Below, piece after piece: positions 4,143-56,779 of a stretch of 64,000 nucleotides of DNA. Source of the stretch: Nymphon striatum (Eukaryota); the NCBI GenBank assembly GCA_016618385.1, contig JABFOP010000159.1, positions 566,555-630,554 on the forward strand, in the 5' to 3' direction. The notes beneath the pieces were generated by a model. It saw nothing but the letters and a program-made list of their open reading frames with translations, was not told where the DNA came from and did no database searches. Each line of letters begins with the position of its first letter. The first letter of the stretch is position 1. A program made the position numbers and the translations under genes.

Positions 4143-4308
4143 ATATACAATGTGGCAGTTACGAAAGCGGAAAAATCTTAATTACACATATAGTGATGAT
4201 GATGATCCAGATGATCCTGATGCACTTTCTGACCTAAGTGACGATTCTAATTCATCTGAGTTGGATAGTGACTCAGAAAAGGAGAGGCAAAGAAAGAAGA
4301 AGTTATCT
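4143..4308 (+). CDS. Candidate internal coding exon (acidic/Ser-rich, ...SDDDDPDDPDALSDLSDDSNSSELDSDSEKERQRKKKLS). Bounded by acceptor tttgatttcAG and donor TCT|gtaatc, ending in phase 0.
   Basis: ORF track 4150-4335. Canonical splice sites seen in sequence. Phase is compatible with the next candidate exon at 6763. Confidence 0.3.
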
Positions 4309-4485
4309 GTAATCAAATTTTTATTTCATATATGATTAACGCATTCCGATGCATTCATTTTCTGTTACTAGGAAATTAGCCTAAGTACTAGATGAGATTC
4401 AACCAAGAGAATTGTGGAATTTAGAAGACCATATTCACACAATTAGGGAAATCTGCCCTAAAATATCATTTACCACCATGCCTAC

Positions 4486-6762: not shown

Positions 6763-7367
6763 ATCAATGACCCTGAAGTTGAAATAATAAAAGTGAAGAA
6801 AGCATCTTCTGCTTTTCCTGAAAATGGTTTACCTGAACATTCGAAGAATAAAAATGTTTCCAAACAAGACTCTATTACTATTATCCCGGTACCTGAAAAA
6901 ATGAAGAACGATAAAGTTTCTGCAGAATGCTCAAGTAGTAAAGTTCAAGTTCAAGCACCTGAACAATTAAAAAATAAAGAAGTTTCCAATAAAGACTTGA
7001 GTGATGAAATTCAAATACTTAAACAATCTAAAGATAATCCAGCTTTCAAAGGAGAATCGAGTCGTAAAGCTCAATTACTGGAACAATCAAAGGATACTGA
7101 AGCATCCAAAAAAGAGTCGGGTCTTAACATTAAAGTTACTGAAAAATCAAAAAATATCGAAGTTTCCAAGAAAGACTTCGAGTAGTAAGGTTCCTGCGAA
7201 ATCGAAAGATGATAATTTGAAAAGAAAATCAACTGGTAAAGTCGAGGTACTTTTCACTGACAGTGCAGAAGCTAACGATTCTAATAAACCTTTTACCTCT
7301 GAATCAAACCAACAAGAATGTGGTGACATTTCAGAATTGGGATATGAATCTTTCACTGATGACTCAG
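6763..7367 (+). CDS. Candidate internal coding exon. Lys-rich repeated KVxEKSKNxEVSKKD-like peptide, then an acidic tail ...FTDDS. Acceptor tttcatttAG|ATC, donor CAG|gtaaat. An apparent 1-nt frameshift lies near 7170-7190 (TAG TAA in frame 1, frame 2 continues).
   Basis: Two overlapping ORFs (6793-7185 frame 1, 7001-7396 frame 2) with the same composition. Splice sites read from sequence. The exon ends in phase 1 (g), and joining to 12963 (at) restores the frame of the big ORF. Confidence 0.3.
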
Positions 7368-8699
7368 GTAAATTGATTTTACAATTTTTTGTGTAACAGG
7401 CCTTAAATTTTAACATTTTAGGGGCTATACTAGGCCACTTTGGCATTGAAGAACTCAAAATTTGTAAGGGCACCAAGGCCAAAAAATACACGGCGTGTTT
7501 TGTTTGTCAGTCGGGGAACAAAATTAGTATAGCGGACAGATGGTCACAGTTTTAAAGCAATTTTACAGAAAAAAAACCACGACAGCCAACCATGAAATAC
7601 ACTGGCCGTTATGAGGGTAATTTCTCAAAGGGCTCCTCGGCCAGTAAGAAAGGCCACATTCGCCTTTAAATTTAAGCCCTGAAGTTGTGAATATTCAGTG
7701 TTTGCAAAAGCATGATGTATTTATAAAATATTTCCTGAAAAATATGTTCAAAAATATATAAAAATTGGCATAGGCTGGTTATGGTTGAAAGAGCACCTAT
7801 GCAGATGCCTCTATATAGCTGCTCTGTAGCCTTATAGTCAGGTCAATATATGAAAATTATGGCTGAACCCCAAAATAATTTATACAAAAGGTTCCCAAAA
7901 AAAAGTCTCCAAAAATTTACCTCTGGGAAGGTGGTTAATTTGCATAAGTTCAAGATGATGACCCATTAAACTTTCAATGTACTACAAACTTTTCACTGGA
8001 TCAATTTAGACCCTATACATGTACTAACAGATGGAAACATGATGCCTATGGGGGATCCCGGCCAAAGCTGGCGTCTCATCATGCAAGTTTATGTAGTCTA
8101 CACTTCCCCTTACTTCAATGCTTATTCAATACCAGGTTGGTTGTTTTCATCAAAATCCTGGTCAGTGAAAGGCACTGCACTTGCACACAACGTGACCTTA
8201 CCTGCACCTTACACACAACTGAGTTGCGTGTAGGCTGCTATCTATCTCTTTTGATAACCTGCACCACTTCTGTCGTACAGCAGGATCTGTTGGGAATTTA
8301 TGTACTCCATTCCAATTATGGCACCCGGGAACAGAACAGTCAGTACAACAGTACGTTGGCATTTCAAAAAGTTACTATCATATGACCGCTTAGTATACAC
8401 ACTGATATACACACAAATAATGGCATATAGGAAACTCACATGACCGCATGCCTACTTTTGCCCCCTGGTGTCGAGTCGGCTGGGTTGCCCCATTAACAAA
8501 ATAGACATATCAAAATTGTTGTGACGTCAAATTGATGTCACGTGACATCTTAGGTGCAATTTACTGCAAATAATGCCCCAAAAGTTTTAACAGGCCGCTA
8601 TCTGAATTATTTTATAGAAGCGTTATCTTTTAATTCCTTGCCAAGAAGCATGTGAAATTTTGTTTTTTTTTTTTTTTTTTTTTTTTTGGACATAAACCT

Positions 8700-9345
8700 T
8701 CTGCAAGCGAAAAAATTCATTTTCGTACATGATCTATGAATGGCTATAACTCGCCCAAATTATGAAGAATCGTTTAAAGTTTATATCATTGTCTTCCTTA
8801 CTTTAAGCTCTATAACGTGAACAAATTTTTAATTCGATTACGATTAATAGGTGACTAAAAATCGACTTTTTAATCAAATGACAAATGAAATTTAAGCGTA
8901 AACCTTCATTTTCATACCTGATATAAGAATGGCTGTAACTCGCCGACATTTTGGAGGATTGTTTCAAGACACACATCGTTGTCTTCCTTACTTCAAGCTC
9001 AATATATAACATGCACAATATTTAAATTTGATTACGAACACTAGGCAACTCACAATCGACTTTTTAATCGCATGACAAATGAAATTCAGGTGAAAACCTT
9101 CATTTTCATACATGATCTAAGATTGACTATAACTTGCCCAAATGCAGGACGATTGTTTCAAGACACACATCGTTGTCCTCCTTACTTTAAGCTCTATAAC
9201 GTTAAAGAAATTTAAATTCGATCAAGATCAATAGGCGACTCATAATTCGACTTTTTAATCGAATGACAAATTAAATTCAAGCCGGAACGTTCATTTTCAT
9301 ACATGATCTAAGAATGACTATAACTCCAGACATGCCAACTATTCC
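8700..9345. repeat. Satellite-like tandem repeat, ~183-bp unit × ~3.5 (ttcattttcatacatgatctaagaatggctataactcgcc...gacaaatgaaattcaagc).
   Basis: Unit starts at ~8713, 8905, 9087 and 9270 (spacings 192/182/183 bp). About 85-90% identity between units. Confidence 0.8.
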
Positions 9346-10201
9346 GATATCGCTGTAATCATTACGTTTTCAGGCCAATGAATACAGTGTTACGCTGGTC
9401 AACAGAAAAATACGATTTGGAAGATATTTCGTTTTTTTGTTTTTTGTTTTTTTTTGAAAACTTTTTTTTGTTGACATTTTAAAAAATTTCAGAAATCAAC
9501 GAAGCGGTTCTTTTATTCATTACTTATTACAAACAAATTTATTTATGTTTGATATTTTGACATTATCTATGTATGAAGAAGTTAAGATCAGGATCATGTT
9601 TTCTCTTAACTATAGGTTCATGAAAATGTATTGCATTTTCAAATATGTATTACTGGGATAGCAGCTAGAGATCAGATATCAATCACTGTAAAAACGGAAT
9701 GGTTGTTTTAACCAATAAGTTGGTTGGTTCAGACATTGGATCTAAAACAACCAAAAGAGTTGTGCATAGTCTGTAGAGAATAAATAAATCATTTAATAAA
9801 ATAGATAAAACGTTTCGGCTTCATAACAGCCATCGTCAGAAAACAAATGAAACTGATTTAATTGAAGGTAGTAATTGATGGTATATGTGGGGAAAAAAAA
9901 GAAAAAAAGGAAAAGAAAGGAATATATTAAATAACTGAAAAGACTATTAAAATTGTAAAAGTAGCCTGAAAGCAGACTGCGGTTGCGGTATTATGCGGTA
10001 TTATTTTTAATCAAGTTATGGAAAAATTCATCTTTAGACTAGAATAAATAAATAATATATTAAATATAAGGACTACAATAATATATTATCACAATATTTA
10101 TTTGAAAGTCGGAGTTTCCATTACCTTGTTTTTTTTATTTTTATTTTCTCCAGGTATATTTTAGTGTGTTATTGCATAATTATATTTTACTGTATGGCTA
10201 T

Positions 10202-11483
10202 CAGGGCTCGAAATTAGCAGTTGTCCGCTTGTCCCGGACAAGTCAAAATTGAGAAGGACAACCAACCTCTGTCACTGCAGTTGTTCAGGGACAAGTACTC
10301 AAATATTGTGTTGTTCTCGTAACAGGCTGTTAACTAGGAATTGAGAACAGGCCGTCCAAATTTACTAGGGGGAGGAGGGTCCATTTTTTTTTTTTTTTTT
10401 TTTTTTTTCTATATTTAGACTTAATCTTTTCATTTTTCTTGAATTTTGAAATTCCTCATTGAAATAAAATATAAACATTTTAACTTTTAATTAAGGTTCT
10501 AATGCCTAAAATGGAATGAACGACTGGTTACATGTAGGCATGTGCAATAAAGAAACTAGTTACATTTGAAGAATTTCTATATTCACACTTACATAAAGTC
10601 AAGTTATAACTAAATCAAAAGAGAAGTGAAATGGTTGGTGCTTTAATTCCGTATAAAGGAAATCTAAGCAAAGCTGTCATTTGTTACTTAGACAGGGGGC
10701 GGACTTGGCCAGACACACCCCTACCCCTATTAACACTATGTAACACTAGTGTGGACACCACACCCCTCCGGCATTACGTAATTTCTGAATGGCCCCTAAG
10801 CTGTAACAATGTTAAAATTAGAAAATAAAATTGAAAATAAAAAAAAAAACTAAAGCAAAACTCCTATCCTGAAGTAAAATCATCACTTGGAGTGAGTGAG
10901 ATCTCCGTAGAATAAAGAAAAATGATTTTTATTTTATTTAGCGCAATATATATTTTTAAAAAAGAAGAAAAATGGTTCCTTCTTCCTGTGAGGTAATCTT
11001 TTCTGAGTTTCGAAATAGACTAATCCAAAAAAGGGGGCCAGCTTATTATGTACGCACGCAAACGGTCTTCCAAACTTCGTGTATTTTACTGTTTCTTTGG
11101 AATAAAATTCCATGTACAACATCAGGATTTTAGAGGACGATATTGGACAGCTTATATAAACGAGTATAAAATATATTTATTATTTGGGCGCCTTATATAG
11201 ATTATAAGAGGACGGCCTAGGACAGCAATTTCGATATATTTTGGCCGTCTACTTTCGTGACTTGGCCGCCCCAAGGACGGCTGGACGTATAGCTGGCTAA
11301 CAGCCTGTCTCGTAATAAGTTACACAAATTCATAAATTAGGTGAACTGGTCAATTTAAGCAACCCTTTGAGAGCAGGAATCTTAACAAATCTTGGGGCAA
11401 GCAATTTTATTTTGGGACAACTAAATGATTATAGGTGCTTGTCCCTGGGACAACCACCTCTAAAATTTTAATTTCGAGCCCTG
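10202..11483. mobile_element. Non-autonomous DNA transposon (~1.28 kb). Perfect 15-bp termini CAGGGCTCGAAATTA, imperfect ~170-bp subterminal TIRs, flanked by the 5-bp direct duplication GCTAT (10197-10201 / 11484-11488).
   Basis: Inverted termini and TSD read directly. A subterminal segment (ttacacaaattcataaattaggtgaactggtcaatttaagcaaccctttgagagca) recurs at 21880-21950, so this is a dispersed family. No transposase ORF. Confidence 0.6.
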
Positions 11484-11654
11484 GCTATGTAAGCTGCTTT
11501 GTTTTTTTTTATAAATAAAGTTTGTATAAAATGAATTTAATGCTTGTGCTTGGACTAATCTGGAATTCTAGTGAATCGCTGTGGACGTTTCGAAAAAATT
11601 AGGCAAGCGGAGTGAGCCAAAATTTTTTTCCTTTTATTTTATTATTTGTCTGTC

Positions 11655-12560
11655 TCATGTATTATGGATGGTTTTATTTAGATCCCTCTTTTCTAATAAG
11701 TCCTCATTATTTCTTATAATAAGGTCATTCCTATGATTCATTAGTGCTAAAGTTGTGGCAGAAAACTTATTCAGCGATTGACTGCAAGTTAGATTTGCTT
11801 TTTTCGCTGCATCTTTCATGGTCTTAATTAATTGGGAGTTTGCCTGATCTACATCTTCATCTATTTCAACTAAAACCTGAAAACTGTTGATTAATTCCAA
11901 TCTATATTGGTCTATTTGGTCCTGCGTGGCAACATCCGGTATGTGCCTTTTCATATCAGTTTTCTGCAATCATACTTGACATTTATGCATAGGGTCGCTT
12001 CCTGTAACTCGGTTCAAAGCCTCTATGTTGGTCAGTTTAGTATGTTTATTAGCTAAGATATAATCTACTTGATTTTTAGCTCTATTGCCCAAGTCCATTT
12101 ATGACTGTCTGATTTCTGGAAAAAAAATATTCATTATTCTGAAATTGTGGGATAAAAATTTTATTAAGGTCTGTCCTTTGTCATTTCGGTCTCCAAGACC
12201 GAAGTTACCTATACAGTCTTCCCCTATCTGTTTATCACCTACTTTGGCATTAAAATCTATAATCAAAGTGTAATAACTGTTTTTATTATTTATTAATGGT
12301 TTTAATTTAAGTCGTCATAGAATTTATTTATTTATTTCGACTACTGTGGATTCTGACGTAGATGCATATACCTGAATAATGGTTAGGGTGTGTCTACTGC
12401 TAATTTTTAATTTATTAATTTATTATTTATTATTTATTATTTCTAATTTATCTGTCTCATGTATAGTAGTAGCATATAGCAGCGTAGTAGTATATCCCAA
12501 TGTGGTTGCAGGTTCCATCTTGTCAAGCGATGAAAGGAAAATGTGTGAAGAATCACGTCA
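11655..12560 (-). mobile_element. 5' fragment of a non-LTR retrotransposon: APE-type endonuclease C-terminal half plus the EN-RT linker (IQVYA.TS, DFNAKVG, GNFGLGDRNDKGQTLIKF, VDYILANK, SDPMH, then NSFQVLVEIDEDVD...). No RT or 3' end is present.
   Basis: Minus-strand translation of 11655-12400 gives the characteristic LINE endonuclease motifs (ORF 11655-11969 plus upstream frames). Bounded by ~20-bp direct repeats ttatttRtctgtctcatgtat at ~11640-11668 and ~12433-12460. Confidence 0.55.
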
Positions 12561-12982
12561 GGGTCACCAATTATATATTTTTCGCAAGGTTGAACAATTA
12601 AAGAGTTTGTGAAGTTGCTTGAAGAGATGGAATGAATAAATCTTGAAAGTTGAATTTAAAGTTATATATACAGATTTATTCTTGGTTTAAAATGTTACCA
12701 TTACAGCAGCAATTGACCAGACATTTCCGAAAACATAGCGTCTGTTTACGGTGCGCGGTATAATATTTTATTAGGTCAGTATCAGCCTTCAAAAATTGTT
12801 ATGATGTTATTACACGTGTTGTAGATCAATCAATGTAATAACACAAATATTAAACGATATTATGCACTTGATAACACCTTTGTTATGAGATAAATATATA
12901 TTATTATATCTACGTTATTCAGTATGAAACTATCAACTCATGTTAAGAATTTTTTATTTCAGATGCAGATGGTGAAACTGAA

Positions 12983-15900
12983 ATGAAGCCTTCCTTTCCG
13001 ACAAATATCGCTCCTCTGTTTTCTCTTCAGGAATCAAAACGAAGCGCAGCTATTGAAGAAACTGAAGTGATGGAGAAACTCAAAGATTGTCTTCTGTCAA
13101 ATTATGTTTATGAGTTCATTTGTAAATTGGAAGAAAGTGATAAAAAAAGAAAATGCCCAAAGTGTCATTTTGAAACAACATCTTTTAAAAGAATGATTGC
13201 TCATGTAATTAAGCACAAAGTCTGGATTTGTCGATTTTGTTGCAGGGCATTCACCAATTACAAATTATTCCATTGCCATGTTCAAGAACACACTTGTGAA
13301 TTTGGGTACTATTGTTCATTTTGCTTTTTTTCTAGGTTGAAATCTGGAGTTTCTAGTCACATTGAAACAACTCATACAGCTTCAGAAAAAGCAGTAGTGA
13401 AACAGTGCCCGCTTCATGTCATTAATGGTATACTTTATGGATACCTTTGTTTAACTTGTGGAATTATTAAGCTTTCAGAAGATATTTTTCAAAACCATTT
13501 CCTTAAATGTAAAGGTTCTAAGTCTGTAAGGATCACTATGTCTAAACCAATTCACCGCAAGATGGCTGATCGTCGGTTCCTTAAGAAAATGAGTGCTGCC
13601 AAGGATGTGATTCAACGGATAAAAAGGAAGCGCAGATTTAAAGAAATTGGAAAATTTAAACTTCGCTCTCCTGGTGTAATAAAGTGTGAAATGTCACCAA
13701 ATGCTGATTCATCTGACTCTAAGAAATGTGTGAAAAAAATTGCAAATCTACCTGTGATATTGCCAAAAGATGAAAAGTCTATTTCATCTTCAACAGATAT
13801 AAAAAATATTATCAAAAAACAGAGTCCCAATACAATATCAGGTCCACAGTTATCAGCAGAGAAAACTGAAAGTAAAATTTTGGCTAATTTACCTTCATCA
13901 GAAATCAAAAATGTTGAAGAAATAATGAATACTAATGAAATGCCAGGTCCAGGAATGACGAACACTAATACGACGTCAGGTCCAGGAATGACGAACACTA
14001 ATACGACGTCAGGTCCAGGAATGACAAACACTAATACGATGCCAGGTCCAGGAATGACGAACACTAATACGACATCAGGTCCAGGAATGACGAACACTAA
14101 TACGATGCCAGGTCCAGGAATGACAAACACTAATACGACGTCAGGTCCAGGAATGACGAACACTAATACGATGCCAGGTCCAGGAATGACGAACACTAAT
14201 ACGATGTCAGGTCCAGGAATGACGAACACTAATACGATGTCAGGTCCAGGAATTACAAACACTAATACGATGTCAGGTCCAGGAATAACAAACACTAATA
14301 CGATGTCAGGTCCAGGAATAACTAACACTAATACGATGTCAGGTCCAGGAATGACGAACACTAATACGATGTCAGGTCCAGGAATGACGAATACAAATGC
14401 AATATCAAGTCCAGGAATGATGAATACTAATGCAATATCAAGTCCAGGAATGACGAATGCTAATGCAATGTCAGGTCCAGGATTGCTATTGTTACAAGGT
14501 CCTCAAACTTTTCAAGTCTCACCTTCGTTGGCTGTGTCACAAGCAGGTGCCACATTGCCTTCCATGAATTCTTCAGTGCAACTATCACAGGCAAGTATAA
14601 TAAATGTTCAAAATTCTCCTGTTTATGTTTTTCAACCGGCCCAGACTATATCTGTTTCATCTCTAGTGTCATCACTCCCAATAGTAAGTAGCTCTCAAGT
14701 TGTTCCTCATGCTGTGCTATATCCAGAACAAGTAGCAAATAATAATACAATTATGAATCTAAGAAAAATGCTTGGAATAGCTGAAGCGGGAGGAATAATT
14801 GATTTGAATAGTTCAATGTCAACTTTGCAGCCTTCTTTAATTCCTTCAATTGCTGAATTAGCTGTTAAACAATCTAATATTCCACAGTCTTCAACACTTT
14901 TGTGTGCCAATCCTGCTCCTGATGAAAACTTACTCCCAGCCTCCACATTTAAAGAAAATCATGGTGCAAGTGATAGCATAAATAAGCCCTCTGCTACTAT
15001 TAATCAAGCTATTACTTCACGAAAGGAAGTTTGTGATAAAGTCAATTCAGATGAGCTCTGCACTGTGTCCACCGAAACTGAATCAGATATTTCTATATCC
15101 AAAAAGCCTCATACTTCGGCAACAGATTTTGCAAAATCAACTAAATCTACAGATAGTATTAAAAATAAATCCCCCAATAATTTTATTTCCGAACATCCTA
15201 CTGTTAAATTAAAGGCTAAAAGTGACAAGTTGGATTCTTCTAAAATTTCAGCGAGTGAATCTCCATGCAAATCACAAAATGTAAGTCCTAATACTTCTGT
15301 TCGCGATTTATTAGATGATTGTGATAATGATAAACCAAATAAAGAATCTCAGTCAAACTACTTACCTTCCACTTTTGTCAGCCAAGATATTGTGATTCCT
15401 GACTATCAGGATAGCCAAGAAGACTCTGATGACAGTGACTTCCAATCCAATATTTCTTTTAGAAGCTCACGAAAACGAAAGAAAATTTCTGAAAATTCCA
15501 GTCATTCCATAGAATTCAAATCTCCTAAGTTTTCTTACGTTCCAGTTAAAAGTGAAAAATTTTCTCCAAAGAAAGTGGATACATCATCAGAAAGTTTTCA
15601 ATCGAGTAGTGTTACACTGCCTTCTAATATTTCTATGATTGACATAAATCAAACTACCCCATTACCAGAAAATGTGATTAGTACAGATGTTCGATGTCCA
15701 CAATGTAATTTGATGCAATCATTCACAGAATCTTCTCTCACCATGCATTTGTGTGAGCATTACAACCTCAATTGCTATGCCTGTGGTTTATGTGGTAAAG
15801 AATTGAAGGATCAGAAAGTTGTTGATTCTCATGCACTGGCAGAGCACAACCGTAAAGTAATACCGTATCGAGTTTTACGCTGCCCAGATTATATAAAGAT

Positions 15901-16480
15901 CATAGTTTCTGATGTCTTCTCTAAGCAAGAAAATATATCAGAAAGTCCACCGAGTGATCAAGAAGTAGCTCTGTTGAAATGCACAATATGCAAAGAAGAT
16001 TTTAAGACTAAACACACCCTTCGCTTTCATCTCAGAACATATCATTTTAAAAAAGCACGATGTGGTGTGTGTGGTGAGGCATTAGCATATCCTAGTACTG
16101 TAAGAAATCATCATGCCGTCAAACATGGTAGTCGTGTTCCAGTAAAGATTGCTGCCAATCCAAATTTTGATGATGAAGAATTCAAGAAGATCTTATCAGA
16201 AATGATTGCTTCATCCTTGAAGTCTTCAGGTGAAAGTTTGCCCCTTGCTTCAAGTCCGACTTCTTTGAAGAAGCAAAGAAAGGGTAAAACACATGACAAA
16301 GTTTTCATCCGTCAAAAAAAGAGCACATCTTCAACAAAATCTTCTGATGTAGATAATATTAATGAGAACAGTGATATTGTACGGATATCATTATCTGAAT
16401 TTCGGAAACGGTTACCTGAGTGTAAGGTTGTTCTCAAACCTTTGAGATTTCAGCTTGATAAAGATTTTAATTTTGCTTAA
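12983..16480 (+). CDS. C2H2 zinc-finger protein, 1165 aa, terminal exon. The exon probably begins at acceptor 12962/12963 (ttttatttcAG). N-terminal C2H2-like fingers (CPKCHF...H..H; CRFCCRAF...HCH; CSFCFF...H), a long S/T/N-rich low-complexity linker, then 4 C-terminal C2H2 fingers (CPQCNLM..HLCEH; CGLCGK..HALAEH; CTICKE..HLRTYH; CGVCGE..HAVKH). Stop TAA at 16478-16480.
   Basis: Longest ORF in the window, with no stops over 3.5 kb. C-x2-C...H-x3-5-H spacing read directly from the translation. AATAAA-like signal about 160 bp downstream (~16641). Confidence 0.6.
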   Translation: MKPSFPTNIAPLFSLQESKRSAAIEETEVMEKLKDCLLSNYVYEFICKLEESDKKRKCPKCHFETTSFKRMIAHVIKHKVWICRFCCRAFTNYKLFHCHVQEHTCEFGYYCSFCFFSRLKSGVSSHIETTHTASEKAVVKQCPLHVINGILYGYLCLTCGIIKLSEDIFQNHFLKCKGSKSVRITMSKPIHRKMADRRFLKKMSAAKDVIQRIKRKRRFKEIGKFKLRSPGVIKCEMSPNADSSDSKKCVKKIANLPVILPKDEKSISSSTDIKNIIKKQSPNTISGPQLSAEKTESKILANLPSSEIKNVEEIMNTNEMPGPGMTNTNTTSGPGMTNTNTTSGPGMTNTNTMPGPGMTNTNTTSGPGMTNTNTMPGPGMTNTNTTSGPGMTNTNTMPGPGMTNTNTMSGPGMTNTNTMSGPGITNTNTMSGPGITNTNTMSGPGITNTNTMSGPGMTNTNTMSGPGMTNTNAISSPGMMNTNAISSPGMTNANAMSGPGLLLLQGPQTFQVSPSLAVSQAGATLPSMNSSVQLSQASIINVQNSPVYVFQPAQTISVSSLVSSLPIVSSSQVVPHAVLYPEQVANNNTIMNLRKMLGIAEAGGIIDLNSSMSTLQPSLIPSIAELAVKQSNIPQSSTLLCANPAPDENLLPASTFKENHGASDSINKPSATINQAITSRKEVCDKVNSDELCTVSTETESDISISKKPHTSATDFAKSTKSTDSIKNKSPNNFISEHPTVKLKAKSDKLDSSKISASESPCKSQNVSPNTSVRDLLDDCDNDKPNKESQSNYLPSTFVSQDIVIPDYQDSQEDSDDSDFQSNISFRSSRKRKKISENSSHSIEFKSPKFSYVPVKSEKFSPKKVDTSSESFQSSSVTLPSNISMIDINQTTPLPENVISTDVRCPQCNLMQSFTESSLTMHLCEHYNLNCYACGLCGKELKDQKVVDSHALAEHNRKVIPYRVLRCPDYIKIIVSDVFSKQENISESPPSDQEVALLKCTICKEDFKTKHTLRFHLRTYHFKKARCGVCGEALAYPSTVRNHHAVKHGSRVPVKIAANPNFDDEEFKKILSEMIASSLKSSGESLPLASSPTSLKKQRKGKTHDKVFIRQKKSTSSTKSSDVDNINENSDIVRISLSEFRKRLPECKVVLKPLRFQLDKDFNFA
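13935..14478 (+). repeat. In-frame 33-bp coding minisatellite, about 16 tandem units encoding (S/P)GPGMTNTNT(M/T), inside the zinc-finger exon.
   Basis: Near-identical 33-nt units (ggtccaggaatgacgaacactaatacgatgtca) read directly. The protein shows GPGMTNTNTxS repeated. Confidence 0.9.
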
Positions 16481-19004: not shown

Positions 19005-19654
19005 TATTGACTTGGTAATAAATGTTTTATAAATGCTTTTTTTTTTTTTGTTTTTTTTTTTTTTTGTCAACCCTGTATGTTCAAGAATTGGCCTATATAG
19101 CCATAGCTGAAATTTTATAGCACTCCCCGCTTCCTTGTGAGAGTCTGGTTAGCAAACTTTAAGAGAGTAAACCCTAACAGAAAATCTGAAGTAGTAGCCC
19201 CTAAGGCGGTTATCAGGACTCCCGACATCTTTTACAGCCAAATTGGTGCCAAACGTCATGCTCTGTGTGCCTTTAAACTAAACCGGCGAGACCGAGAAGG
19301 GGGCAATGAACAATGGTCAGCTCAATATCTCCATAGACTCTGCCTAGGTTTGTGCGCCACGAAGAAGACACTTCGTTGCTGCTGACGGCGCACAAACCCA
19401 AAGCCGTATGCGACAGAAAGTTGTTGTGTTCAAAGATTATAATGTATGTCCTTACTTCTTCTCCCCCCACTTCCTCTCCATCTATCTCTCCCTCACTTCC
19501 TTCCCCACCTGCTCAATTACATGTTATCTATAATTGTACTTTTGATATTAAAGGCATACTCCACTCATTGACACTCATTTTGAATAATCTCTGAAATGAT
19601 AGAACAGGGCGAGTTAAGCAGATCCTGAAATTTTTTCTCTTATCTGACATCGTT

Positions 19655-20566
19655 AAATATTTTTTTAATTGATAAAACATTAATTGTAACGAGAATTAGA
19701 GAGCGGCCATTTTATTATCTACATCCGTAAATACGTCACCCACGCGACCCTGCTTCCGACATTACCATGCTGATCAACATTTAACCTCCTCCTTTTCGGC
19801 TCGAATCGATACGGTTTTATTCCATTTTTACCAGCATAATTTTGAAAAATATCTTCATCACTTGAATCAATAGAAGCTTCAACCATCTTGGTAAATGTCA
19901 CAGCGTGCCTGACGTCACGCCTGATAAGTCACGTGACTTTGTCCAAAATGGCAGCTGCTCTAATATCCAAGATTGTGGTTTTTAAAATGAGTTTAAAAAT
20001 ATTAAATGAACTCGAAAAAAATTCAAAAAATCAGGAATTGTTATTTGATATATGTACTATGGATTGGGAATTTTTTTTTTTTTACACCCAATGAGTGGAG
20101 TACCCCTTTAAATATTTTTTTAATTGATAAAACATTAATTGTAACGAGAATTAGAGAGCGGCCATTTTATTATCTACATCCGTAAATACGTCACCCACGC
20201 GACCCTGCTTCCGACATTACCATGCTGATCAACATTTAACCTCCTCCTTTTCGGCTCGAATTGATACGGTTTTATTCCATTTTTACCAGCATGATTTTGA
20301 AAAATATCTTCATCACTTGAATCAATAGAAGCTTCAACCATCTTGGTAAATGTCACAGCGTGCCTGACGTCACGCCTGATAAGTCACGTGACTTTGTCCA
20401 AAATGGCAGCTGCTCTAATATCCAAGATTGTGGTTTTTAAAATGAGTTTAAAAATATTAAATGAACTCGAAAAAAATTCAAAAAATCAGGAATTGTTATT
20501 TGATATATGTACTATGGATTGGGAATTTTTTTTTTTTTACACCCAATGAGTGGAGTACCCCTTTAA
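19655..20566 (+). repeat. Recent tandem duplication: 455-bp unit × 2.0, >98% identical. The unit's 3' part is the LINE family-1 3' tail (…caatgagtggagta(c/t)gcctttaa).
   Basis: Units 19655-20109 and 20110-20566 are virtually identical. Duplicated ORFs 19719-19901/20174-20356 and 19888-20094/20343-20549 in the ORF track confirm this. Confidence 0.9.
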
Positions 20567-21568
20567 ATAAAGTCAGTCTTTACTCACCATCTGAAGAGGA
20601 CTCATCTCTTACTGTCTCCTAGCTAGACCCACAAACATAACAAAAGTGGTCAATCAATCATAAAATCCTGAGTGTTTCAAGACGTCTGCCTTTTCGGAAT
20701 TTCAGACATTTAGTTTTGGCTGTATTTACTGTCTTTGAGTTTCTTTGAGAAGATTTCGCCAATTGACACTTTTCAACTTGACCATTGATCTCGATTTGTT
20801 AAATTTAGTGTTAGATGATAACGAAACAAACTACACTCTAACCATTAAAGAGAAAAACAAGAAACATTTTAATATACTTTTTTAAATTCTATTATTATAT
20901 AATAGCCCCATTTAAATTTTAGTAACCTACCATTGACACTAGATTTAAAAGGAAGAGAGAAAAGAAATGATCCCAGCCCCCTCCCCCCAGTCCCAGCAAA
21001 CAGGAAGGAGCCACAGCTTGTACCCAATATTTCAAAGCACCCCCTATCGGCCCCTATCTAAGGCATTTGGCAATTTCTCTATCCCCCCCCCTATCACGGG
21101 CTTTTATCACAATTTTCCACCCACTTTCTAGGGGGTTCAGGGATTCAGGTACCCCCTTCCTAAGGAATTCAAATATGTTAACCCCCTTTCTAGGGTATCA
21201 AAAATATCAAGAATTTACAAGACCCAAGAATATGTGTGCAAGACACACCTGTACAAAAGCACAATTATGAGCCTTCTGTTTTATTTTGTGCCTAATGGTG
21301 GCGCATGGTAATTCATTCTAATTTCGATTTTATATGCGATTTATGCCATTTGGTGACATTATTTGCGTTTTGCCGGTTTATTTACATTCGGTGATAACCA
21401 CTACTCATTTTTAATAATTCTCACATTTAACATTTTTTTGAACTGATATCTGACATTGGCACCCCCTTACCTCCCTCATATAAGGATGCGTTAAAGTTTC
21501 AATTTTTAACAAAAAAAGGATAGGTGAAATTGGGAACAAAATCTCCCAAAATGTTGCAACTATGTAGG

Positions 21569-22739: not shown

Positions 22740-25162
22740 TGTTACAGTCAATCTGTCAACCCAGACATTTGGCCAAATGCCTAGGCATTTGGTCAAATGC
22801 CCGTGGTAGTCAGGCATTTGATCAAATTCCTAAAAAATTCAGGCATTTGGCCAAATGACTAAAATATATGGTCAGGCATTTGACCAAAAGCCTGAAATAA
22901 TAAAAATAATAAAAAAATAACATTGACAATACAGCAAAATTATTTATTTTACTACAACCAGTGAAAAAATCATGAACAGATCTACTTGATCTAAGACCAT
23001 ACTACAGCACATACGAAATTCAGCACATGAGTAAGTTTTAAAGGTCGATTGTTAAGAAAATAGCAAGACTACTTGACAAAATACTTACATAAAGCAATAC
23101 CACATGCATCAAATAAAAACTGACATTCAAATAATTGGCAGACTAGACTAGCCCTAGGAGAGTCGGAACGTATCATTCCGAATAGGCAAGTCACATGTTA
23201 TGTCTTGGTAGTGAGTTACTTATTGGAGCAGTTCAAGCTGGAGTGACACCGACTGTTACATTTAAGATTGTTCTTGAAACACTTGCACCTGTTTGTTTTG
23301 CATCTAGAGGTACCAGAACAGTTGCACTTCACAAAGCCTTGGCCACCACTCTGGGACTCTATACCGACAGCAGAACGAAGAGACACGGTGATGTCGGTTT
23401 TGATGTCAGACAGGGTAAGGAGTTTCTGCGGGCACAGATCGAATTGGTTCCTGGAATACTTGCCATTCAAGACACCAGCAGGACAGGCAATGGAATACTG
23501 TTCACTGTCACTCACTTCAACGATTACACCAATGATGTTCCTTGGATCTCCACGGCCTCGATCTACAGATGGAATAGGCACGGCCACATTGTCGCCAACA
23601 ACTCCGGCTTTCATCACTACCTTACTCCGCTTCACCATTCTTTCTGCTTGCTGATGCTGTGCTTCTCTGGCTAGCTTACGTTTCCTGTTAATGTTCTGAC
23701 TATTTGGCAGGTCTGCTGAATTCGAGGGGGGCTGGTCAGTTGGTTGTGAGGTAGGCTGGTCTGTTGAATCTGAGGTGGGCTGGTCTGTTGAATCTGAGGT
23801 GGGCTGGTCTGTTGAATCTGAGGTTGGCTGGTCAGTTGGTTGTGAGGTAGGCAGGTCTGCTGAATCTGCTGAGTGGGGGCTGTCCACAACATTCAGGAGA
23901 TCATCCTCTGACTGTAGCTTGTGAAGGATGTCATGCGGAAGTGACGTCGAACTCAGCCCAACCTTGGCTTCAATGCCAAACAGAGCAGAGTATGGCGACT
24001 GCTTGATGCTGGCACTGTAGCTGGATTTCTTCATGAATTGGACAAACCGGATGCCAACTGACCAATCGGTGGTCTTGTTTTCGCTCATCCAGGCACACAA
24101 CATGTCCTTAATGTCGGAGTTTGCCCTTTCAACAGAGCCTTGACTCTGCGGATGTCGTGGCTTTCCATGAACAAGTAAGAGGCCTGTCCACAGCTCTTTC
24201 AGTTCACTGATCACTGCAGCTGTAAATTCAGATCCATTGTCACTCTGTAGGATCTGAGGAGCACCAAACAATAGAAAAATGTCCATCAGCTGATAGGCAA
24301 CCTCAGCAGCTCTCTTTGATGTAAGCGGGCGAAGGACACAGAACTTGGTCAGGTGATCTTGGTACACTAAAATCCACTTGTACGCACCTTGGGGTAAAGA
24401 CTGCATGTCAACCAGGTCGACTTGGCCGCGGGAAGTGAAGTCCTTGGAAAGAATCGGTCGAACAACAACCCCTTTGGTTGTAGGTCTTTTCCGTTTGCGC
24501 TGACAGTGGATGCACAGAGACAATTCCACAGAATCACGGGTGATGTTACAGTACTTTCTTGTGATTTCTTTCAACATACGATCCCTGCCGCCATGGCCAG
24601 TTGCAACGTGGGCTCTGTTGATGATATCGTATGTCTCTTCGATGTGAACGTAGTATAAGAGCTGCTCATCTGGGGATTCCCGCTTCTTGATAAGTCTCTC
24701 AGAATCACCGCACTGTAGCACTTCATACTTGGCCAAAAGGTAGTAGCCTTGGTGGGTCTTTGTTGATGGGTCACTGGTCAGACGCTTGACTTCTTCTATA
24801 ATGGAGTAGTACTGGTTCTTAGGAATGAGGACCTTCTTCAGCACCTCGTATTTATCAAACAGCGCTCTCTGAAACGTCTCTGCAGCGGTCGAATCTTCCT
24901 TAAAGTTAAAAATCTGCATATTTTTAACCACCTCATTTTCGTTTGCAAGTTACGGTGTTACGGTGTTTCGTTGAAATTAAGTGTTTGACATATTGACTAA
25001 AAGCATTCAGGCAATCCCTCTAACAATATGTCCAAAATTTCAGTCTTTTGGCCAAATGCCTACATTTTTTAGGCATTTGATCAAATGCCTGACCACAACG
25101 GACATTTGACCAAATGCCTAGGCATTTGGCCAAATGTCTGGTTTGACTGATTGACTGTAACA
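22740..25162 (-). mobile_element. Ginger-like cut-and-paste DNA transposon, apparently intact (2423 bp). Termini 5'-TGTTACAG...CTGTAACA-3'. TIRs ~125-145 bp (22740-22885 / 25020-25162) contain 3-4 copies of the palindromic motif AGGCATTTGGCCAAATGCCT. 4-bp TSD TATA (22736-22739 / 25163-25166).
   Basis: TIRs, TGTNR terminus and TSD read directly. A single uninterrupted integrase-type ORF lies between the TIRs. Confidence 0.8.
23216..24931 (-). CDS. Integrase-like DDE transposase (571 aa). N-terminal HHCC zinc-binding motif (HVATGH...C..C), then a retroviral-type DDE core (VDLVDMQ; ILQSDNGSEF; QSQGSVERAN) and an SPYSALFG motif (~PFELLYG). It has a PTSDSTDQ low-complexity repeat and a Cys-rich C-terminus (CNCSGTSRCKTNRCKCFKNNLKCNSRC).
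   Basis: ORF track. The motifs match the rve/integrase-core family by memory. The LLYYV stretch may correspond to the Ginger YPYY motif. Confidence 0.8.
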   Translation of the reverse strand: MVKNMQIFNFKEDSTAAETFQRALFDKYEVLKKVLIPKNQYYSIIEEVKRLTSDPSTKTHQGYYLLAKYEVLQCGDSERLIKKRESPDEQLLYYVHIEETYDIINRAHVATGHGGRDRMLKEITRKYCNITRDSVELSLCIHCQRKRKRPTTKGVVVRPILSKDFTSRGQVDLVDMQSLPQGAYKWILVYQDHLTKFCVLRPLTSKRAAEVAYQLMDIFLLFGAPQILQSDNGSEFTAAVISELKELWTGLLLVHGKPRHPQSQGSVERANSDIKDMLCAWMSENKTTDWSVGIRFVQFMKKSSYSASIKQSPYSALFGIEAKVGLSSTSLPHDILHKLQSEDDLLNVVDSPHSADSADLPTSQPTDQPTSDSTDQPTSDSTDQPTSDSTDQPTSQPTDQPPSNSADLPNSQNINRKRKLAREAQHQQAERMVKRSKVVMKAGVVGDNVAVPIPSVDRGRGDPRNIIGVIVEVSDSEQYSIACPAGVLNGKYSRNQFDLCPQKLLTLSDIKTDITVSLRSAVGIESQSGGQGFVKCNCSGTSRCKTNRCKCFKNNLKCNSRCHSSLNCSNK

Positions 25163-27990: not shown

Positions 27991-29289
27991 AGTTTATGAC
28001 GTCACATTCCAGAGGTATTTATATTTATATATTTATATTAATTAATTAAGAGTTTGTGGGAATCCATGCAGTACTCACTTCTATCAAATATTTGCTGTTA
28101 CAGCTTAGACGAGAGGGTTTCATCTCTTCTCGTGAAATCAGTGCATTAATTAGCAACGATGTGCTGTAAGGTAGATTAGGCCCCCTGCAAAAAATGTCTT
28201 ATAGGATTTCTATACACTTGTAGCATCTGAATTCTGTAGAACTGCTCTATAGGATTCTCAGTTCAAAAATCCTATAGAAAATTTTGTGCAACGGGAGTTC
28301 TTCCTCTAACCCTTCTACAAGTCTTAATAGGAAGATGGAGGAAGACTCCGAATGAGCTTTTAAGCTATCGGTGGGTCGTCAAACCTAGCAAAACAAGATT
28401 TAGCGCTTAAATATTAGATACAGGAATGACTCACAAGCAACCTTGAAAGGAATCGAAGGCCACAGACGGAATTTCATACAATCCTTACACTCTTAAAACA
28501 AATTGGTTATCACAAACAATAAATTATTGTTTAAAATGACATTATTTACTTCAAACAATTAATTGTTTGCTTTTCCTAAACATTGAACAATCTTTTTTGT
28601 TCACATCAAACATTCGTCATTGCTTGGTCAAAATTCGTGTGCTGATAGGTGGAGAGGAATCACGTGCTTAAACTAAGCAGACGATTAAGATTAAAAATGA
28701 CTGATTTCACTCCGTACGCTTCAAATCCAGTCAATGAATGTAATGAGAAGAAAAGGTTGTTATATTTATCACATTTGATTTCAACTCATACACATATACT
28801 TTAAGATAATTCTCATAATCTAATCCAGTCAATTTTCCTTGGATAAACACAATAAATTCTTATAAAATTTGCGGTCCGAGAACTTTCCAACATGTCGTGT
28901 TATTCAGAATGAACAAGTTATTGTTTAACACAACACATATACATGTATTATCAAAACCAATATAAATTGTTTAGCATGAATAATTTTATAGTCGGCGCCA
29001 TTTTAAGTTAGAGAATTGTTTGTGTTGACTAATTTATTGTTTGTCGTAGGCTATTTGTTTTAAGAGTGTATGCACCTCTCAATTTCCACTTTGCAGCTTA
29101 AATTCTTGAGAAAGAAACGAACCCAAATTAGCCTTCTAAGGACTCGATGGGCTCACATGGAATTACAATTTGCCCATACAATCCTTTCAATAAATCCTAG
29201 AATCGCAAACATTCCCTATGATTCTGAAGACTTATCTGGCAACCCAAATACAATAAAAATAATGCAGTAAAAAGCTAACACAAAACACT

Positions 29290-30289: not shown

Positions 30290-31500
30290 GATTTTCTGAA
30301 CGCTCTTCACAGCTGAAGTGTATCCAACAGTTTACTCTCAGTACTCTCCTACTCTTCTTAAACAAGTAAAAGTAGTACCTGTATTTAAGAATAAAGGCTC
30401 CCTTTTTGACTAAACAATTATCGACCAATATCTTTACTCTCCAATATTGATAAAATTTTTGAAAAGCTTGCACACAAAAGAGTAACATCATACCTTAATT
30501 TTAAGAAAATTATAAAAAATGAACAATTTGGTTTCCGCAGTAAACACTGAACTGTGCATGCTCTCATAAGCCTTAGAGAAAACATTCGTAAGGCTCTATA
30601 TAGACAAAGGTAAACTGTCATGTGGGGTTTCCATTGATCTACAGAAGGCTTTTGATACCGTTGATCACGAAATTTTACTAATCAAACTTAGGCATTATGG
30701 AATAAGGGGCGTTGCCAATATGTGGTTTAGATCCTACCTCTCTGAAAGCAAGCAACTTGTTTCCCTCTCCGGTTTTTCCTCTACTCTTATTTTAAATGGT
30801 GTCCCCCAAGGCTCTGTATTAGGCCCCCTTTTATTTTTACTTTATATCAACGATCTACCCAACTCCATCAAATTTTCCGAAACTTGCCTTTTTGCTGATG
30901 ACAATAGCCTACTTTATTCTGATTTTGACCTTAAATTGATAGAACAAATGATGAACCGTGATCTTGAACATCTTGTCAACTGGCTAAATGCCAACAAAAT
31001 TTCACTGAATGTTTCTGAAACTGAAGTTGTCCTCTTTCGAAATGCCCGTAAACGAGTCCACTATGATATTAATCTGAAAATAAATAATCAACCACTCATC
31101 ACTTCTTATGTTAAGTACTTATGATACTTACGATACTTATGATACTTACGATAATGATATTAAATGGGTCATGGTCCCATCATTTAATATCATTCTCAGC
31201 TCGAATCAATACAGTTAATAACACTAATAATCATTAAAGTATCCTTTCTCCACAAATGTATATACGCAAGAGCAGTGTGCAGCGACTGTGACGTAACGAC
31301 TTGTGGAAAGACACGTCACAGCGTGACGTATCCACAATGGCAGCTCCAGAGTAGTTGATTTTAAAATATGTTTAAAAATATTAAATGAACTAGAAAAAAA
31401 TTTTAAAAATCAGGATTTGTTGTTTGATATATGTACTATGGGTTGGGAAAGTTTTTTTTTATACACCCAATGAGTGGAGTATGCCTTTAAGTGATCAGAA
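30290..31500 (+). mobile_element. 5'-truncated LINE (family 1). Frameshifted RT domains 1-6 (…FIDLQKAFDTVDHEILL.KL; GVPQGSVLGPLLF; FADDNSLL; SETEVVLF) to 31125, an internal deletion, then the family-specific 3' tail 31160-31500 ending …CAATGAGTGGAGTATGCCTTTAAG.
   Basis: ORF 30720-31124 plus upstream frames carry RT motifs. The tail matches 62340-62660 and 19655-20566. Confidence 0.7.
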
Positions 31501-36899: not shown

Positions 36900-37705
36900 C
36901 CTAACCTTGCGTAGAAAGTGTTTTTTAATAGTCTAAACTTGACCTTTAAAGGAATCCCAATAGATAGAGATATACTGACCCACCTCAAATTTGCAGGCGA
37001 TGTAGTCCTGCTGCAGGAGTCCCCTCAGGAGCTTCAACTTCTTATGATTGAAGAACTGAGAACTGCTAATAATACAGTAGGTTTGGAGGTTAATTTGAGT
37101 AAAACAGAGGCCATGTTTAACAGAAATGTAGTAACCCAACCCATTAGCACAGGGAATGCGACCTAAGACCAAGTAAATAGATATACTTATTTAGGACAGC
37201 TTATCTCAATAGATAAAGACTGGAAGCCTGAAGTGATACGAAGTATTACCGTAGGTTGGCAAACTTTCAATCTATACCTATCTGCATGAACCAGAAGGCA
37301 TACGAAAAGCGTATCCTACCTGTTCTCACGTAAGAGTCGGAGACCTGGGAAATTTCAGACATCTTGAGAAAATTAGAAAATGCTCAGCACAGCCTGAACA
37401 GAAAGATCTTAGGTGTCATCTAGGAATAGAAAGACCAATGGTTGGGTGAAGACGCACACAAGGTGTACATATTTAATCCAAACAGTTAAGAATAGCAAAT
37501 GGAATTGGGCTGGGCACTTGACCCGTAGAATAGACAATAGATGGACCACTAAAACTACAATTTGAATGGGATGCAGAATAGGGTGTAACCGAAGAGAAGG
37601 TGAGTGGAAGATATGCAAAGTTTGACTGGAAAGCTATATGGGAGGCCTTTGCTCATCAAATGGTGATGATGATGGTGATGGTGATGGTGATGGTGCTGGT
37701 GCTGG

Positions 37706-37742
<37 letters not shown>

Positions 37743-46566: not shown

Positions 46567-49500
46567 GGGAGCTAGCCCAGTTTCATTTACACTTTTGGGA
46601 ACGAAAGGTTTGATGGCTTCATACTATGAAAGGTACTTTGGTAATGAAAAAAACCCATTTCTTAAGTTCTGCATTCCCGGCCTTAAGGAGGTGCAGGGTC
46701 CTAATCCCCCCAAAAACGGGACCCTCATTTACACTTTTAAGAACGACACTGAAATTTATGTGGATTACAGCCCTCATATCACTTGTTCCGAATTAGCAAC
46801 TTAAGAAAAAATATTTCCAGGCAAAATGCACTTAAGAAGGGCCTAAAAAGAGTCCCAAAACGGGTCTCAATTACACTTTTGGGCACAAAGCTGAAATTGA
46901 TGGTGAAGTATCCCCTCATATCACTTATCACAAATGTGTAACTTAAGAAAAGATAATTCATGGCATTCTAGCTTAAGAAGGCTCAAATTTACCAAAATGG
47001 GTCTGAAAGGGTCCAAATTGCATTATTGAGAACAACATTGAAATTCATGTGGGTTACGCTCCTCATATCACTTGTTCAAAATTAGCAACTTAAGAAAAAA
47101 TATTTCCAGGCAAAATGCACTTAAGAAGGGCCTAAAAAGGTCCCAAAAGGGGTCTCAATTACACTTTTGGGAACAAGGCTGAAATTGATGGTGAGGTATC
47201 CCCTCATATCACTTATCACAAATGTGTAACTTAAGAAAAGATAATTCATGGCATTCTAGCTTAAGAAGGCTCAAATTTACCAAAATGGGTCTGAAAGGGT
47301 CCAAATTGCGTTATTGAGAACAACACTGAAATTCACGTGGGTTAGCAACTTAAGAAAAAATATTTCTAGGGGAAAGGCACTTAAGAAGGGCCTAAAAAGG
47401 TCCCAAAAGGGGTCTCTATTACACTTTTGGGAACAAAACTGAAATTGATGGTGAAGTATCTCCTCATATCACTTACCACAACTATATAACTTAAGAAAGA
47501 ATAATTCGTGGCATTCTGGCTTAAGAAGAGTCCAAAAAGGGACCCATACTTTTGAGAACACTGAAATTCACAATGGTTAAACCCCTCAATTCTCTTGTCA
47601 CAAAAAAATCAAGAGATTATAGGGTTGATCACAACATTTAATGTGGAACGTTATTGTATAAGAGGTACATGAATGGTAGATGATAAATTTAATTGAGTTA
47701 TCCTGCACAGGCCTACTGATCATGGCAAATATCAAATAAAGTCGCTTTAGCCAAATTTATCAATGTTACTTTCAACGTCTTCAGTGTCTCAATTGGACTC
47801 AGGCCTCCTCAGCATCTTCATCCTCTAGACCAGTGCTATCTGGAACAACTAAGTCTGGCATCTGAAGGCATATAAACCGCGCTGTTTGATATGAGTTGTC
47901 TACAAGTTCCCATCCTTGTTTATGTTATTTTGGGATGTTGCTATTGCAGGCAGCATGCCATGTCATTGCAACAAAGTTGCTACGATGAATTTTTTGTAAG
48001 ACTACATTTTCACAGGGAGGGATGTTGCTTGCATCTGCACCTTTCAATCTCGCAAAAGGATTCTTACCCCTCTTCAGGCCATACGATTTCGCGAACACCT
48101 GGTATCTGTGCTTGTTTAGTGGCAATGTCTGTTTTGCCCCATACAGCTTTGAAGTATTCTTCTAACGCCTCACATGTGGCTCGATCAACTTCACCTGTTG
48201 CCAAAGCTGCAAAAGCATCAAGAAAAGAATAATTTTCCTCTGCAATTTTCAGGGGGCGTTTCTTCCCCTTCCTAATACAAAATGAGGCGTAATCCCAACC
48301 TGTGAACACATGTATTCCTGGAAGGGATTTACATAGGCGTAACCTTGGTTGCAATTTCAGATATGTTAATGTAGCGCCTGCTATCCTTACCAGAAGTGCC
48401 AACATCCATCCATATCTTAGTCTATACACCATGGGAATAGTGTATACGAATTATTGATATATCTGTATCTGTTGCTCTAACAACTATGTCACCTGGTTGC
48501 TGGCAGGTTGAGTTAGCCTAAAATGCATGCAGGAATATTCTTGTGTCAGCATCTGGATGGTTGCACTCTAAACGAGGAACTTCTGACACATCCACAACTC
48601 CATCGGCCCCTCCAAACAGATAACAGTTGGTGTCAACGCCAATGCAGACCTTTGCCACTCAGACTAGCAGAATGACATGGTTGACTCCAATCTTTTACCA
48701 GAAAGCGGGGAAATTGCTGCTTGAATGAAGTTGACTTCAATGCCTTCTCAAGACTTCATGGACGAATTTGGTCTAGACCAGTAATGCGATACACAGAATA
48801 TTCTATACCTCGGCGTTCGTGTTCATTGCTCTTTATTCTGGGTTCCTCATATGTGTCAAAGAGTATGTCAACACGTTTGGAGGGGTACGACAGGATTGCA
48901 TGTAGCACAGAAGGTGACAGTTTCCCATACGTTGGAAGCAGGCAATGCATGAGAAAGTTACCATCTATAATAGTACTCTTCACTTTCGTTGGCGAACCAT
49001 GTTCTGCTACCCTGCTCTCCAGGTATTTGAACAGATCACTCTTGGTTCCATGGCTCATGGTCACCATTGTGCCGTCTGTTCTGCTCAAGGTTAGAGGAAC
49101 AGGAGTCAAGGGCCCACCTCAGGTGTCTATCCTGAGCTTTAAATAGTGATGTACTCACTCAGGTCTATTTATGCCTGAGGTACAGGTCCTTGAATTCTCT
49201 ATGGTCTACCGAAAATTCATAAGTATAACTTTTCCACCTTGTTTCAATTCCGCCCTACATTTTCAGCCTACAATACTCACTATACAGTTTCATGTTGTAT
49301 TGATACGAGTGCAAGGATTGCAATCTTACCATTGGAAATGCCCTTCTTAAGCCAGAATGCCACGAATTATTCTTTCTTAAGTTATATATTTGTGATAAGT
49401 GATATGAGGGGATACTTCACCATGAATTTCAGCTTTGTTCCCAAAAGTGTAATTGAGACCCCTTTTGGGACCTTTTTAGGCCCTTCTTAAGTGCATTTTG

Positions 49501-56725: not shown

Positions 56726-56779
56726 CGGAATGGTTGTTTTAACCAATCGTAATTGGTTGTAATATCTGTAATATTCCAT

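Follow-up and report, generated by a model that had tools for sequence, protein, structure and literature searches.

PRDM9 is a zinc-finger gene with a coding minisatellite that evolves by unequal exchange, and the Thr-Gly repeat of Drosophila period, the FLO1-type intragenic repeats of yeast and the Pro/Thr/Ser-rich variable number tandem repeats of mucins are length-variable coding repeats. Here we describe an array of sixteen 33-bp units from the sea spider Nymphon striatum, in the predicted last exon of a C2H2 zinc-finger gene located in a 64,000-nucleotide stretch of contig JABFOP010000159.1 (assembly GCA_016618385.1, positions 566,555 to 630,554, forward strand); this whole stretch is called the window, and positions below are counted from its first letter. 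The array is a real, in-frame coding minisatellite in the variable linker of the gene, and an ordinary kind of lineage-specific coding repeat. We consider it likely that an 11-codon unit within this last exon was amplified in frame to 16 copies and is tolerated as a flexible spacer between two clusters of zinc fingers.

Like PRDM9, this is a zinc-finger gene carrying a coding minisatellite, but the PRDM9 unit is an 84-bp finger and alters DNA specificity, whereas here a 33-bp unit without a finger (it encodes neither Cys nor His) is repeated in the linker that separates the clusters. The period, FLO1-type and mucin repeats resemble it in their in-frame tandem units rich in Thr, Gly, Ser and Pro, their lineage-specific copy number and their homogenised cores. 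Mucin-type glycosylation is unlikely here, since the protein does not appear to be secreted (see below).

Tandem Repeats Finder places the array at 13940-14482 with a period of 33 bp, 16.5 copies, 92% matches, 0% indels and a score of 855, and a gap-free repeat finder gives the same 33-bp register. In the frame of the surrounding open reading frame (ORF) there are 16 full units of 11 codons each, as a first-pass annotation of this DNA had described, with a degenerate partial unit (MNTNEMP) upstream and an extra GPG downstream:

13925..14482 (+), in-frame 33-bp minisatellite: edge unit 13925-13945, 16 units 13946-14473, trailing GPG

The unit consensus, GGTCCAGGAATGACGAACACTAATACGATGTCA, is translated as GPGMTNTNTMS. 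With up to three mismatches it is matched 13 times in the window, each time within the array, and 0 times in 100 dinucleotide-preserving shuffles. The units fall within the 10-100 bp of coding minisatellites, stand head to tail, have a length that is a multiple of three and lie in frame in a coding exon, and the frame through the array is continuous with the conserved fingers on either side.

Twelve distinct unit types are arranged in an ordered, non-random map that includes three pairs or triplets of identical units. Units 1-13 form a homogenised core, 0-2 nt from the consensus, and units 14-16 a decayed 3' edge, 5-6 nt from it; both edges have AAT where the core has AAC. Units 2-7 alternate between TS and MP types, and units 10-12 are an Ile block. 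In units 3-7, units two places apart are more alike (identity 0.94-1.00) than neighbours are (0.88-0.91), which points to duplication of 66-bp blocks. The CpG columns of the unit are preferentially variable (5 of 6, vs 7 of the 27 other columns; Fisher p = 0.016); many variants, among them ACG/ATG and ACG/ACA, look like CpG transitions that were later copied. The unit differences had been called mostly single synonymous or conservative changes; the ATG/ACG and TCA/CCA variants are single-base differences, but they alter the residue (Met/Thr and Ser/Pro), and codon differences from the consensus are non-synonymous in 19 cases and synonymous in 9. In the encoded segment Thr makes up 27%, Asn 18%, Gly 17% and Met 14% of the residues; charged residues are absent, and the composition falls on the Uversky order/disorder boundary.

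On either side of the array the protein contains CxxC...H...H/C motifs, eight in all, four at amino acids (aa) 58-176 and four at aa 905-1048. The features of this part of the gene, with fingers and clusters located by motif and basic patches by composition (those resembling a nuclear localisation signal are marked NLS-like), are as follows:

13142-13153 and 15470-15484 (+), basic NLS-like patches (KKRK, RKRKK)
13154..13510 (+), four C2H2-type fingers forming the N-terminal cluster
13154-13216 (+), finger 1, aa 58-78
13229-13291 (+), finger 2, aa 83-103
13313-13375 (+), finger 3, aa 111-131
13448-13510 (+), finger 4 (C2HC), aa 156-176
13622..13636 (+), basic NLS-like KRKRR patch
14483..15694 (+), Ser/Pro/Lys-rich linker, unalignable with distant orthologues, predicted local distance difference test (pLDDT) score <30 in AlphaFold2
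15695..16126 (+), four C2H2 fingers forming the C-terminal cluster
15695-15760 (+), finger 5, aa 905-926
15782-15847 (+), finger 6, aa 934-955
15857-15922 (+), conserved RCPDYI segment in the C-terminal cluster, from the alignment of orthologues
15980-16045 (+), finger 7, aa 1000-1021
16061-16126 (+), finger 8, aa 1027-1048
16391..16474 (+), conserved C-terminal motif LSEFRKRLPECKVVLKPLRFQLDKDFNF, common to the orthologue P0006, predicted helix

Both finger clusters are present in two distant orthologues, P0002 (1553 aa) and P0006 (737 aa), from Logan runs SRR30938156 and SRR30938155, respectively, which match the N-terminal cluster in a local search at 1e-35 to 1e-39 and in which the finger ligands and the C-terminal motif were compared at 30-38% identity. 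Zinc ligands are invariant in the three taxa for fingers 2, 3, 5, 6, 7 and 8, including all 16 of the C-terminal cluster; in P0006 a Tyr takes the place of the final His of finger 1, and the fourth ligand of finger 4 changes position among the three taxa. In a phmmer comparison with PDB sequences, the single sequence of the N-terminal cluster matches PRDM9 fingers (6e-6) and the C-terminal cluster matches fingers of ZBTB10, HIC2, Aart and SALL4. A three-orthologue profile of the N-terminal cluster reaches PRDM9 fingers at 1e-16, and that of the C-terminal cluster reaches HIC2 at 2e-7, with weaker matches to ZBTB20 and CTCF fingers. The earlier identification of a C2H2 gene with N- and C-terminal clusters is thus upheld by the eight motifs and by profiles that match solved C2H2 fingers.

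With classical Krueppel-type C2H2 proteins (PRDM9, CTCF, ZBTB) the window protein shares the finger motif (C-x2-4-C-x12-H-x3-5-H), the ligand spacing and this profile similarity, and the linker between fingers 2 and 3, HTCEFGYYC, is partly TGEKP-like. It differs from them in having only eight fingers, in two distant clusters, and in several H-x4-H, x11 or x13 spacings and a sub-threshold Pfam score. The spacing from the second Cys to the first His is the canonical x12 in five of eight fingers, x11 in one and x13 in one; one finger is C2HC. No KRAB, BTB, SET or ZAD partner domain was found in the Pfam scan of the protein. With an alignment of four sequences, AlphaFold2 gives strand-strand-helix elements at pLDDT 70-87 for fingers 6-8 in the C-terminal cluster, pLDDT <50 for most of the N-terminal cluster, and a low-confidence helix at aa 1137-1163 for the C-terminal motif. 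Nearly all Foldseek matches of the full-protein model are C2H2-DNA complexes, at weak scores (E 0.004 or weaker). The two conserved four-finger clusters presumably bind nucleic acid, the basic patches are putative nuclear localisation signals, and a nuclear location is predicted for the protein.

The array and both clusters lie in one long ORF at 12983..16480 (+), with its first in-frame ATG at 12983 and a TAA stop at 16478-16480, whose frame is open upstream to 12947. A polypyrimidine tract and CAG stop at 12962, which fits an exon start at 12963, and the acceptor at 12962/12963 reads ttttttatttcag followed by AT. The window and the two orthologous loci compared (L001 and L002) agree in this cag/AT acceptor, in its phase and in the point where homology sets in, which gives comparative support to the exon start that had been proposed at 12963. 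Because homology begins at the shared acceptor, coding sequence is expected to extend further upstream; the ORF of 1165 aa given by the first-pass annotation is present, but it is the product of the last exon only and not a whole protein. The predicted model makes 12963-16480 the large terminal exon of a C2H2 zinc-finger gene of nuclear type:

4150..4308 (+), candidate first coding exon, read from sequence alone: starts with the ATG at 4150, encodes an acidic/Ser-rich stretch followed by a basic one, and is in phase 0 with its GT donor at 4309
6763..7367 (+), candidate second coding exon: Lys/Ser-rich, covered by the open frames 6763-7182 and 7001-7393, which overlap, with the donor 7367/7368 in phase 1
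7368..12962 (+), predicted intron of 5.6 kb with repeat debris throughout
12963..16480 (+), predicted terminal coding exon of the zinc-finger gene: 1165-aa ORF, acceptor position and phase kept in L001 and L002

The first candidate exon joins in frame to 6763, and the phase of the donor at 7367/7368 fits the acceptor at 12963. A transposon origin of exon 12963-16480 was considered and rejected, as 0 dispersed repeats overlap it. The intron contains a THAP-domain fragment at 8198-8362 (-) (Pfam 1e-5), a 194-bp x3.3 tandem repeat at 8704-9326, and two open frames within 11658-12314 (-) that look like transposon remnants, of which the one scanned (11658-11969) has no Pfam match.

An exhaustive HMMER scan with the C-terminal 266 aa recovered one close relative, KAG1673798.1 (91% identical), which together with KAG1673799.1 and KAG1673800.1 represents the hypothetical protein GQR58_015408 of Nymphon striatum in three isoform models of 477-534 aa. 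GQR58_015408 is ~92% identical over the array, the linker and the C-terminal fingers, and ~7% different in the linker beside the array. The amino-acid difference of 7-8% points to a divergent copy or to another Nymphon species. Its visible array runs x-NTNTMS, M, I, I, M, M..AIS, S..AIS, S..MS, then GPGLLLLQG. These units follow the same order as window units 9-16, and the seven 3' units are collinear in this protein comparison. There are two Ile-type units in GQR58_015408 vs three in the window, and the two carry private variants (ITNSNT, ITNSDT) with a private Ser common to both. As the seven 3' units share their order, the 3' half of the array is older than the split of the window and KAG1673798.1 (GQR58_015408) lineages, to judge from the encoded units. 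A very recent expansion, as had been proposed from the near-identity of the units, is contradicted for this half, and recency is unreadable from 33-nt units, since identity between two of them bounds their age only loosely.

The first 33 aa of the KAG1673798 model match a dispersed repeat (YSLDERVS...) found in the window at 28099-28143 (+) and 62915-62941 (-). Being repeat-derived, this start of the model looks artefactual, and the model enters the array part-way. Collinearity of the 33 aa with the sequence upstream of the window array, which would imply an array of ~7 units, obtained no support from local alignment. Copies of the repeat element from which the first exon of the KAG1673798 model seems to derive are thus present in the window, which has repeat families in common with Nymphon.

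The search for orthologues that the first-pass annotation had suggested as a check on lineage-specificity showed that the GPGMTNTNT array is absent from both distant orthologues, P0002 and P0006. Orthologue lengths range over 737-1553 aa and the middle parts are unalignable. P0002 (L001 3175-3604) has its own 141-bp x3.0 coding repeat with 85% matches, whose ~47-aa units occupy another section of the linker, and no coding tandem repeat was found in the linker of L002/P0006. With one repeat private to P0002, none in P0006 and the present array seen in the Nymphon sequences, the linker of this family acquires tandem repeats independently from lineage to lineage. On the sequences compared, the linker that houses the array evolves fast, and the array itself is lineage-specific.

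Fish, lamprey and spider hits were rejected as orthologues, being generic finger matches; names were looked up for 16 other hits, from fish, lamprey, a scallop and a spider, and all were generic polydactyl zinc-finger or unnamed proteins. No other protein among the best 150 hits matches the N-terminal cluster nearly as strongly, and among the hits examined the two clusters were seen together only in the Nymphon protein and the two Logan contigs. Five window ORFs have no exact match in a collection of 15 billion proteins, which indicates that the proteins of this genome are not among them; exact look-ups of the N. striatum models gave no match either, and the unit pattern has no match in metagenome contigs. 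Word-indexed protein searches (full length, N-terminal and C-terminal) also gave no match, and are uninformative because the index missed even the 91%-identical KAG1673798.1.

Several observations weigh against an intact C2H2 gene with an expanded but merely tolerated spacer. The best Pfam C2H2 match, zf-C2H2_4, scores 16.1 bits vs a cut-off of 27, and the orthologues are likewise sub-threshold; the gathering threshold is a curation convention for such very short domains and not a structural criterion. The number of units comes from a single assembly. The candidate second exon (6763-7367) switches frame near 7179-7185, in a Lys/Ser-rich, loosely repetitive stretch, and the gene could be damaged in the assembly or the individual. 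The GQR58_015408 model is a fragment: the N-terminal fingers and, of the C-terminal ones, 5 and 7 are missing, and one zinc ligand of finger 8 is Tyr instead of Cys, which hints at decay or poor assembly. AlphaFold2 gives every unit of the array a 7-residue strand and a 4-residue turn at pLDDT 70-88, in the whole protein and in the array alone.

Near-identical 33-bp units are hard to assemble, and the array or its length could be an artefact in which units were expanded or collapsed during assembly. The pairs and triplets of identical units would allow this, as would the draft quality of the only other Nymphon assembly, made from a pool of 40 individuals (PMC12220506). Artefactual expansion or collapse sits poorly, however, with 12 unit types in an ordered, non-random map, with the lack of indels and the kept frame, and with the recurrence of the seven 3' units in the same order in an independently assembled, annotated N. 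striatum protein, and we regard it as unlikely.

We think it equally improbable that the locus is a decaying or non-functional gene whose repeat grew after loss of constraint. The frame switch near 7180 and the fragmentary N. striatum model, with two fingers missing and a zinc ligand changed from Cys to Tyr, would fit decay, but an open frame of 1177 codons is much longer than chance would produce at 34% G+C, and the eight fingers and the C-terminal motif are intact, with ligands kept relative to orthologues only 30-38% identical. The frame switch itself may be an assembly error, a real frameshift or a mini-intron. Removal of one base near 7179 gives a single coding sequence (CDS) of 1426 codons, and a paralogous stretch, gacttgagtgatgaa, is without the C that is present in gacttcgagtag at the switch; alternatively, splicing of a 79-nt GT-AG mini-intron at 7185-7263 (GTAAGG...ACAG) gives a CDS of 1400 codons. 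The splice from 7367 to 12963 proposed earlier accordingly stands as to the phase of its donor, but the upstream exon from which it departs changes frame.

For the favoured reading, a tolerated spacer in an intact gene, we propose the following history. Two conserved four-finger clusters are joined by a long, fast-evolving, low-complexity linker that houses the array. Point mutations would arise in single units, mainly as transitions at the CpG sites of the unit, and replication slippage or unequal exchange would then copy or delete blocks of one or two units; we infer this mechanism from the unit map, as it would account for the 66-bp TS/MP alternation, the three-Ile run, the homogenised core and the decayed edges. 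The concerted evolution claimed earlier agrees with this in part: the contrast of core (0-2 nt) and edge (5-6 nt) and the private Ser in both N. striatum Ile units fit homogenisation, yet the seven 3' units have stayed positionally orthologous (as seen in the protein, over its visible 3' part). The array would most likely be a tolerated, uncharged Thr/Asn/Gly/Met-rich flexible spacer of variable length, and at most a weakly self-associating segment of prion-like low complexity; it would be disordered and probably does not form a folded domain.

It is very unlikely that the array is a folded module under selection for its repeat number, whether a beta-solenoid with a Thr ladder (TxTxT) or a domain that self-assembles as cross-beta. 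Confident AlphaFold2 beta-solenoids on near-perfect repeats are a known artefact of over-prediction. The strand and turn modelled in each unit favour a fold, as does the uncharged, Asn/Thr-rich composition, and TNTNT, which each of the 13 core units contains once (the placement of strands on it comes from AlphaFold2 only and is unreliable for such repeats), is a TxTxT motif like those with which arthropod antifreeze proteins bind ice (PMC13080227). Among the five models made of the array by itself, however, pLDDT ranges from 44 to 75, and Foldseek with the array model returned only weak beta-helix matches (every E >0.04), with no antifreeze protein among the 50 matches listed. In view of this spread, these weak matches and the known over-prediction on repeats, the AlphaFold2 strands were set aside as evidence. 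The array shares its regular TxTxT motif and its modelled stacked strands with the arthropod beta-solenoid antifreeze proteins; it differs from them in being without a signal peptide and inside a zinc-finger protein, and its fold is an AlphaFold2 prediction only. The candidate N-terminus, MWQLRKRKNLNYTYSDDDD, is charged and not hydrophobic, with no signal-peptide-like start as judged by eye, and together with the basic NLS-like patches this indicates a protein that is not secreted. The array is also missing from both distant orthologues. A bolder version, in which (GPGMTNTNTMS)16 would adopt a beta structure, either folded or self-templating (a solenoid with a Thr/Asn ladder, or a prion-like cross-beta module), and its repeat number would tune the self-association of a sea-spider-specific zinc-finger regulator, is slightly less probable still; if true, it would mean that an arthropod antifreeze-like TxTxT repeat architecture is used inside a nuclear protein.

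The strand opposite the array has a long open frame, which the first-pass annotation had regarded as artefactual:

13612..14361 (-), antisense open frame (VLVFVIPGPDI)n, 249 aa, a repeat by-product and not a gene

The chance that it is a real gene for a hydrophobic (VLVFVIPGPDI)n protein is negligible despite its 249 codons (296 stop to stop), since the 33-bp unit is stop-free in two of six frames only, the sense frame and this one, and in 27% of shuffles of the sense-codon order the 111 non-repeat codons beside the array remain open, both of which mark a by-product of the repeat, while the start codon is GTG and conservation in the orthologues follows the sense frame.

The direct importance of the array, read as a tolerated spacer, is modest. 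It marks a site where sea-spider assemblies and gene models can fail, as in the N. striatum model, a fragment that starts within a repeat element and picks up the array midway, and at ~0.6 kb it is a ready marker, sized by polymerase chain reaction, for Nymphon population work. The locus also represents a zinc-finger family in which the finger clusters are kept while the linker changes two-fold in length and gains independent tandem repeats, and it illustrates why a confident AlphaFold2 beta-solenoid should not count as evidence of a fold when the repeat is near-perfect.

The window is eukaryotic DNA of ~34% G+C, rich in transposon debris, and outside the zinc-finger gene it consists largely of transposon remains. 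A 571-aa ORF at 23216-24931 (-) has an integrase core (rve, 2.7e-7), a weak integrase zinc-binding match and a Cys-rich tail, and is probably a transposon-derived integrase; it contains a coding tandem repeat of its own at 23706-23868, with a 24/48-nt period and DQPTSDST units. Fragments of non-long-terminal-repeat reverse transcriptases lie at 30570-31121 (+), 36915-37163 (+), 56772-57116 (+) and 62582-62833 (-); the two that were scanned match RVT_1 at 9e-20 and 3e-11, and the other two are similar by eye. Rfam and tRNA scans of the window gave no match. Other repeats include a 455-bp tandem duplication at 19653-20569 (2.0 copies, 99% identity) with identical 82-codon frames at 19846-20091 and 20301-20546, a 288-bp x2.1 tandem repeat at 46740-47344 (94% matches) with a weaker 141-bp sub-period, and an (ATG)n/(CAT)n microsatellite at 37660-37742 that produces poly-Met and poly-His open frames on opposite strands.

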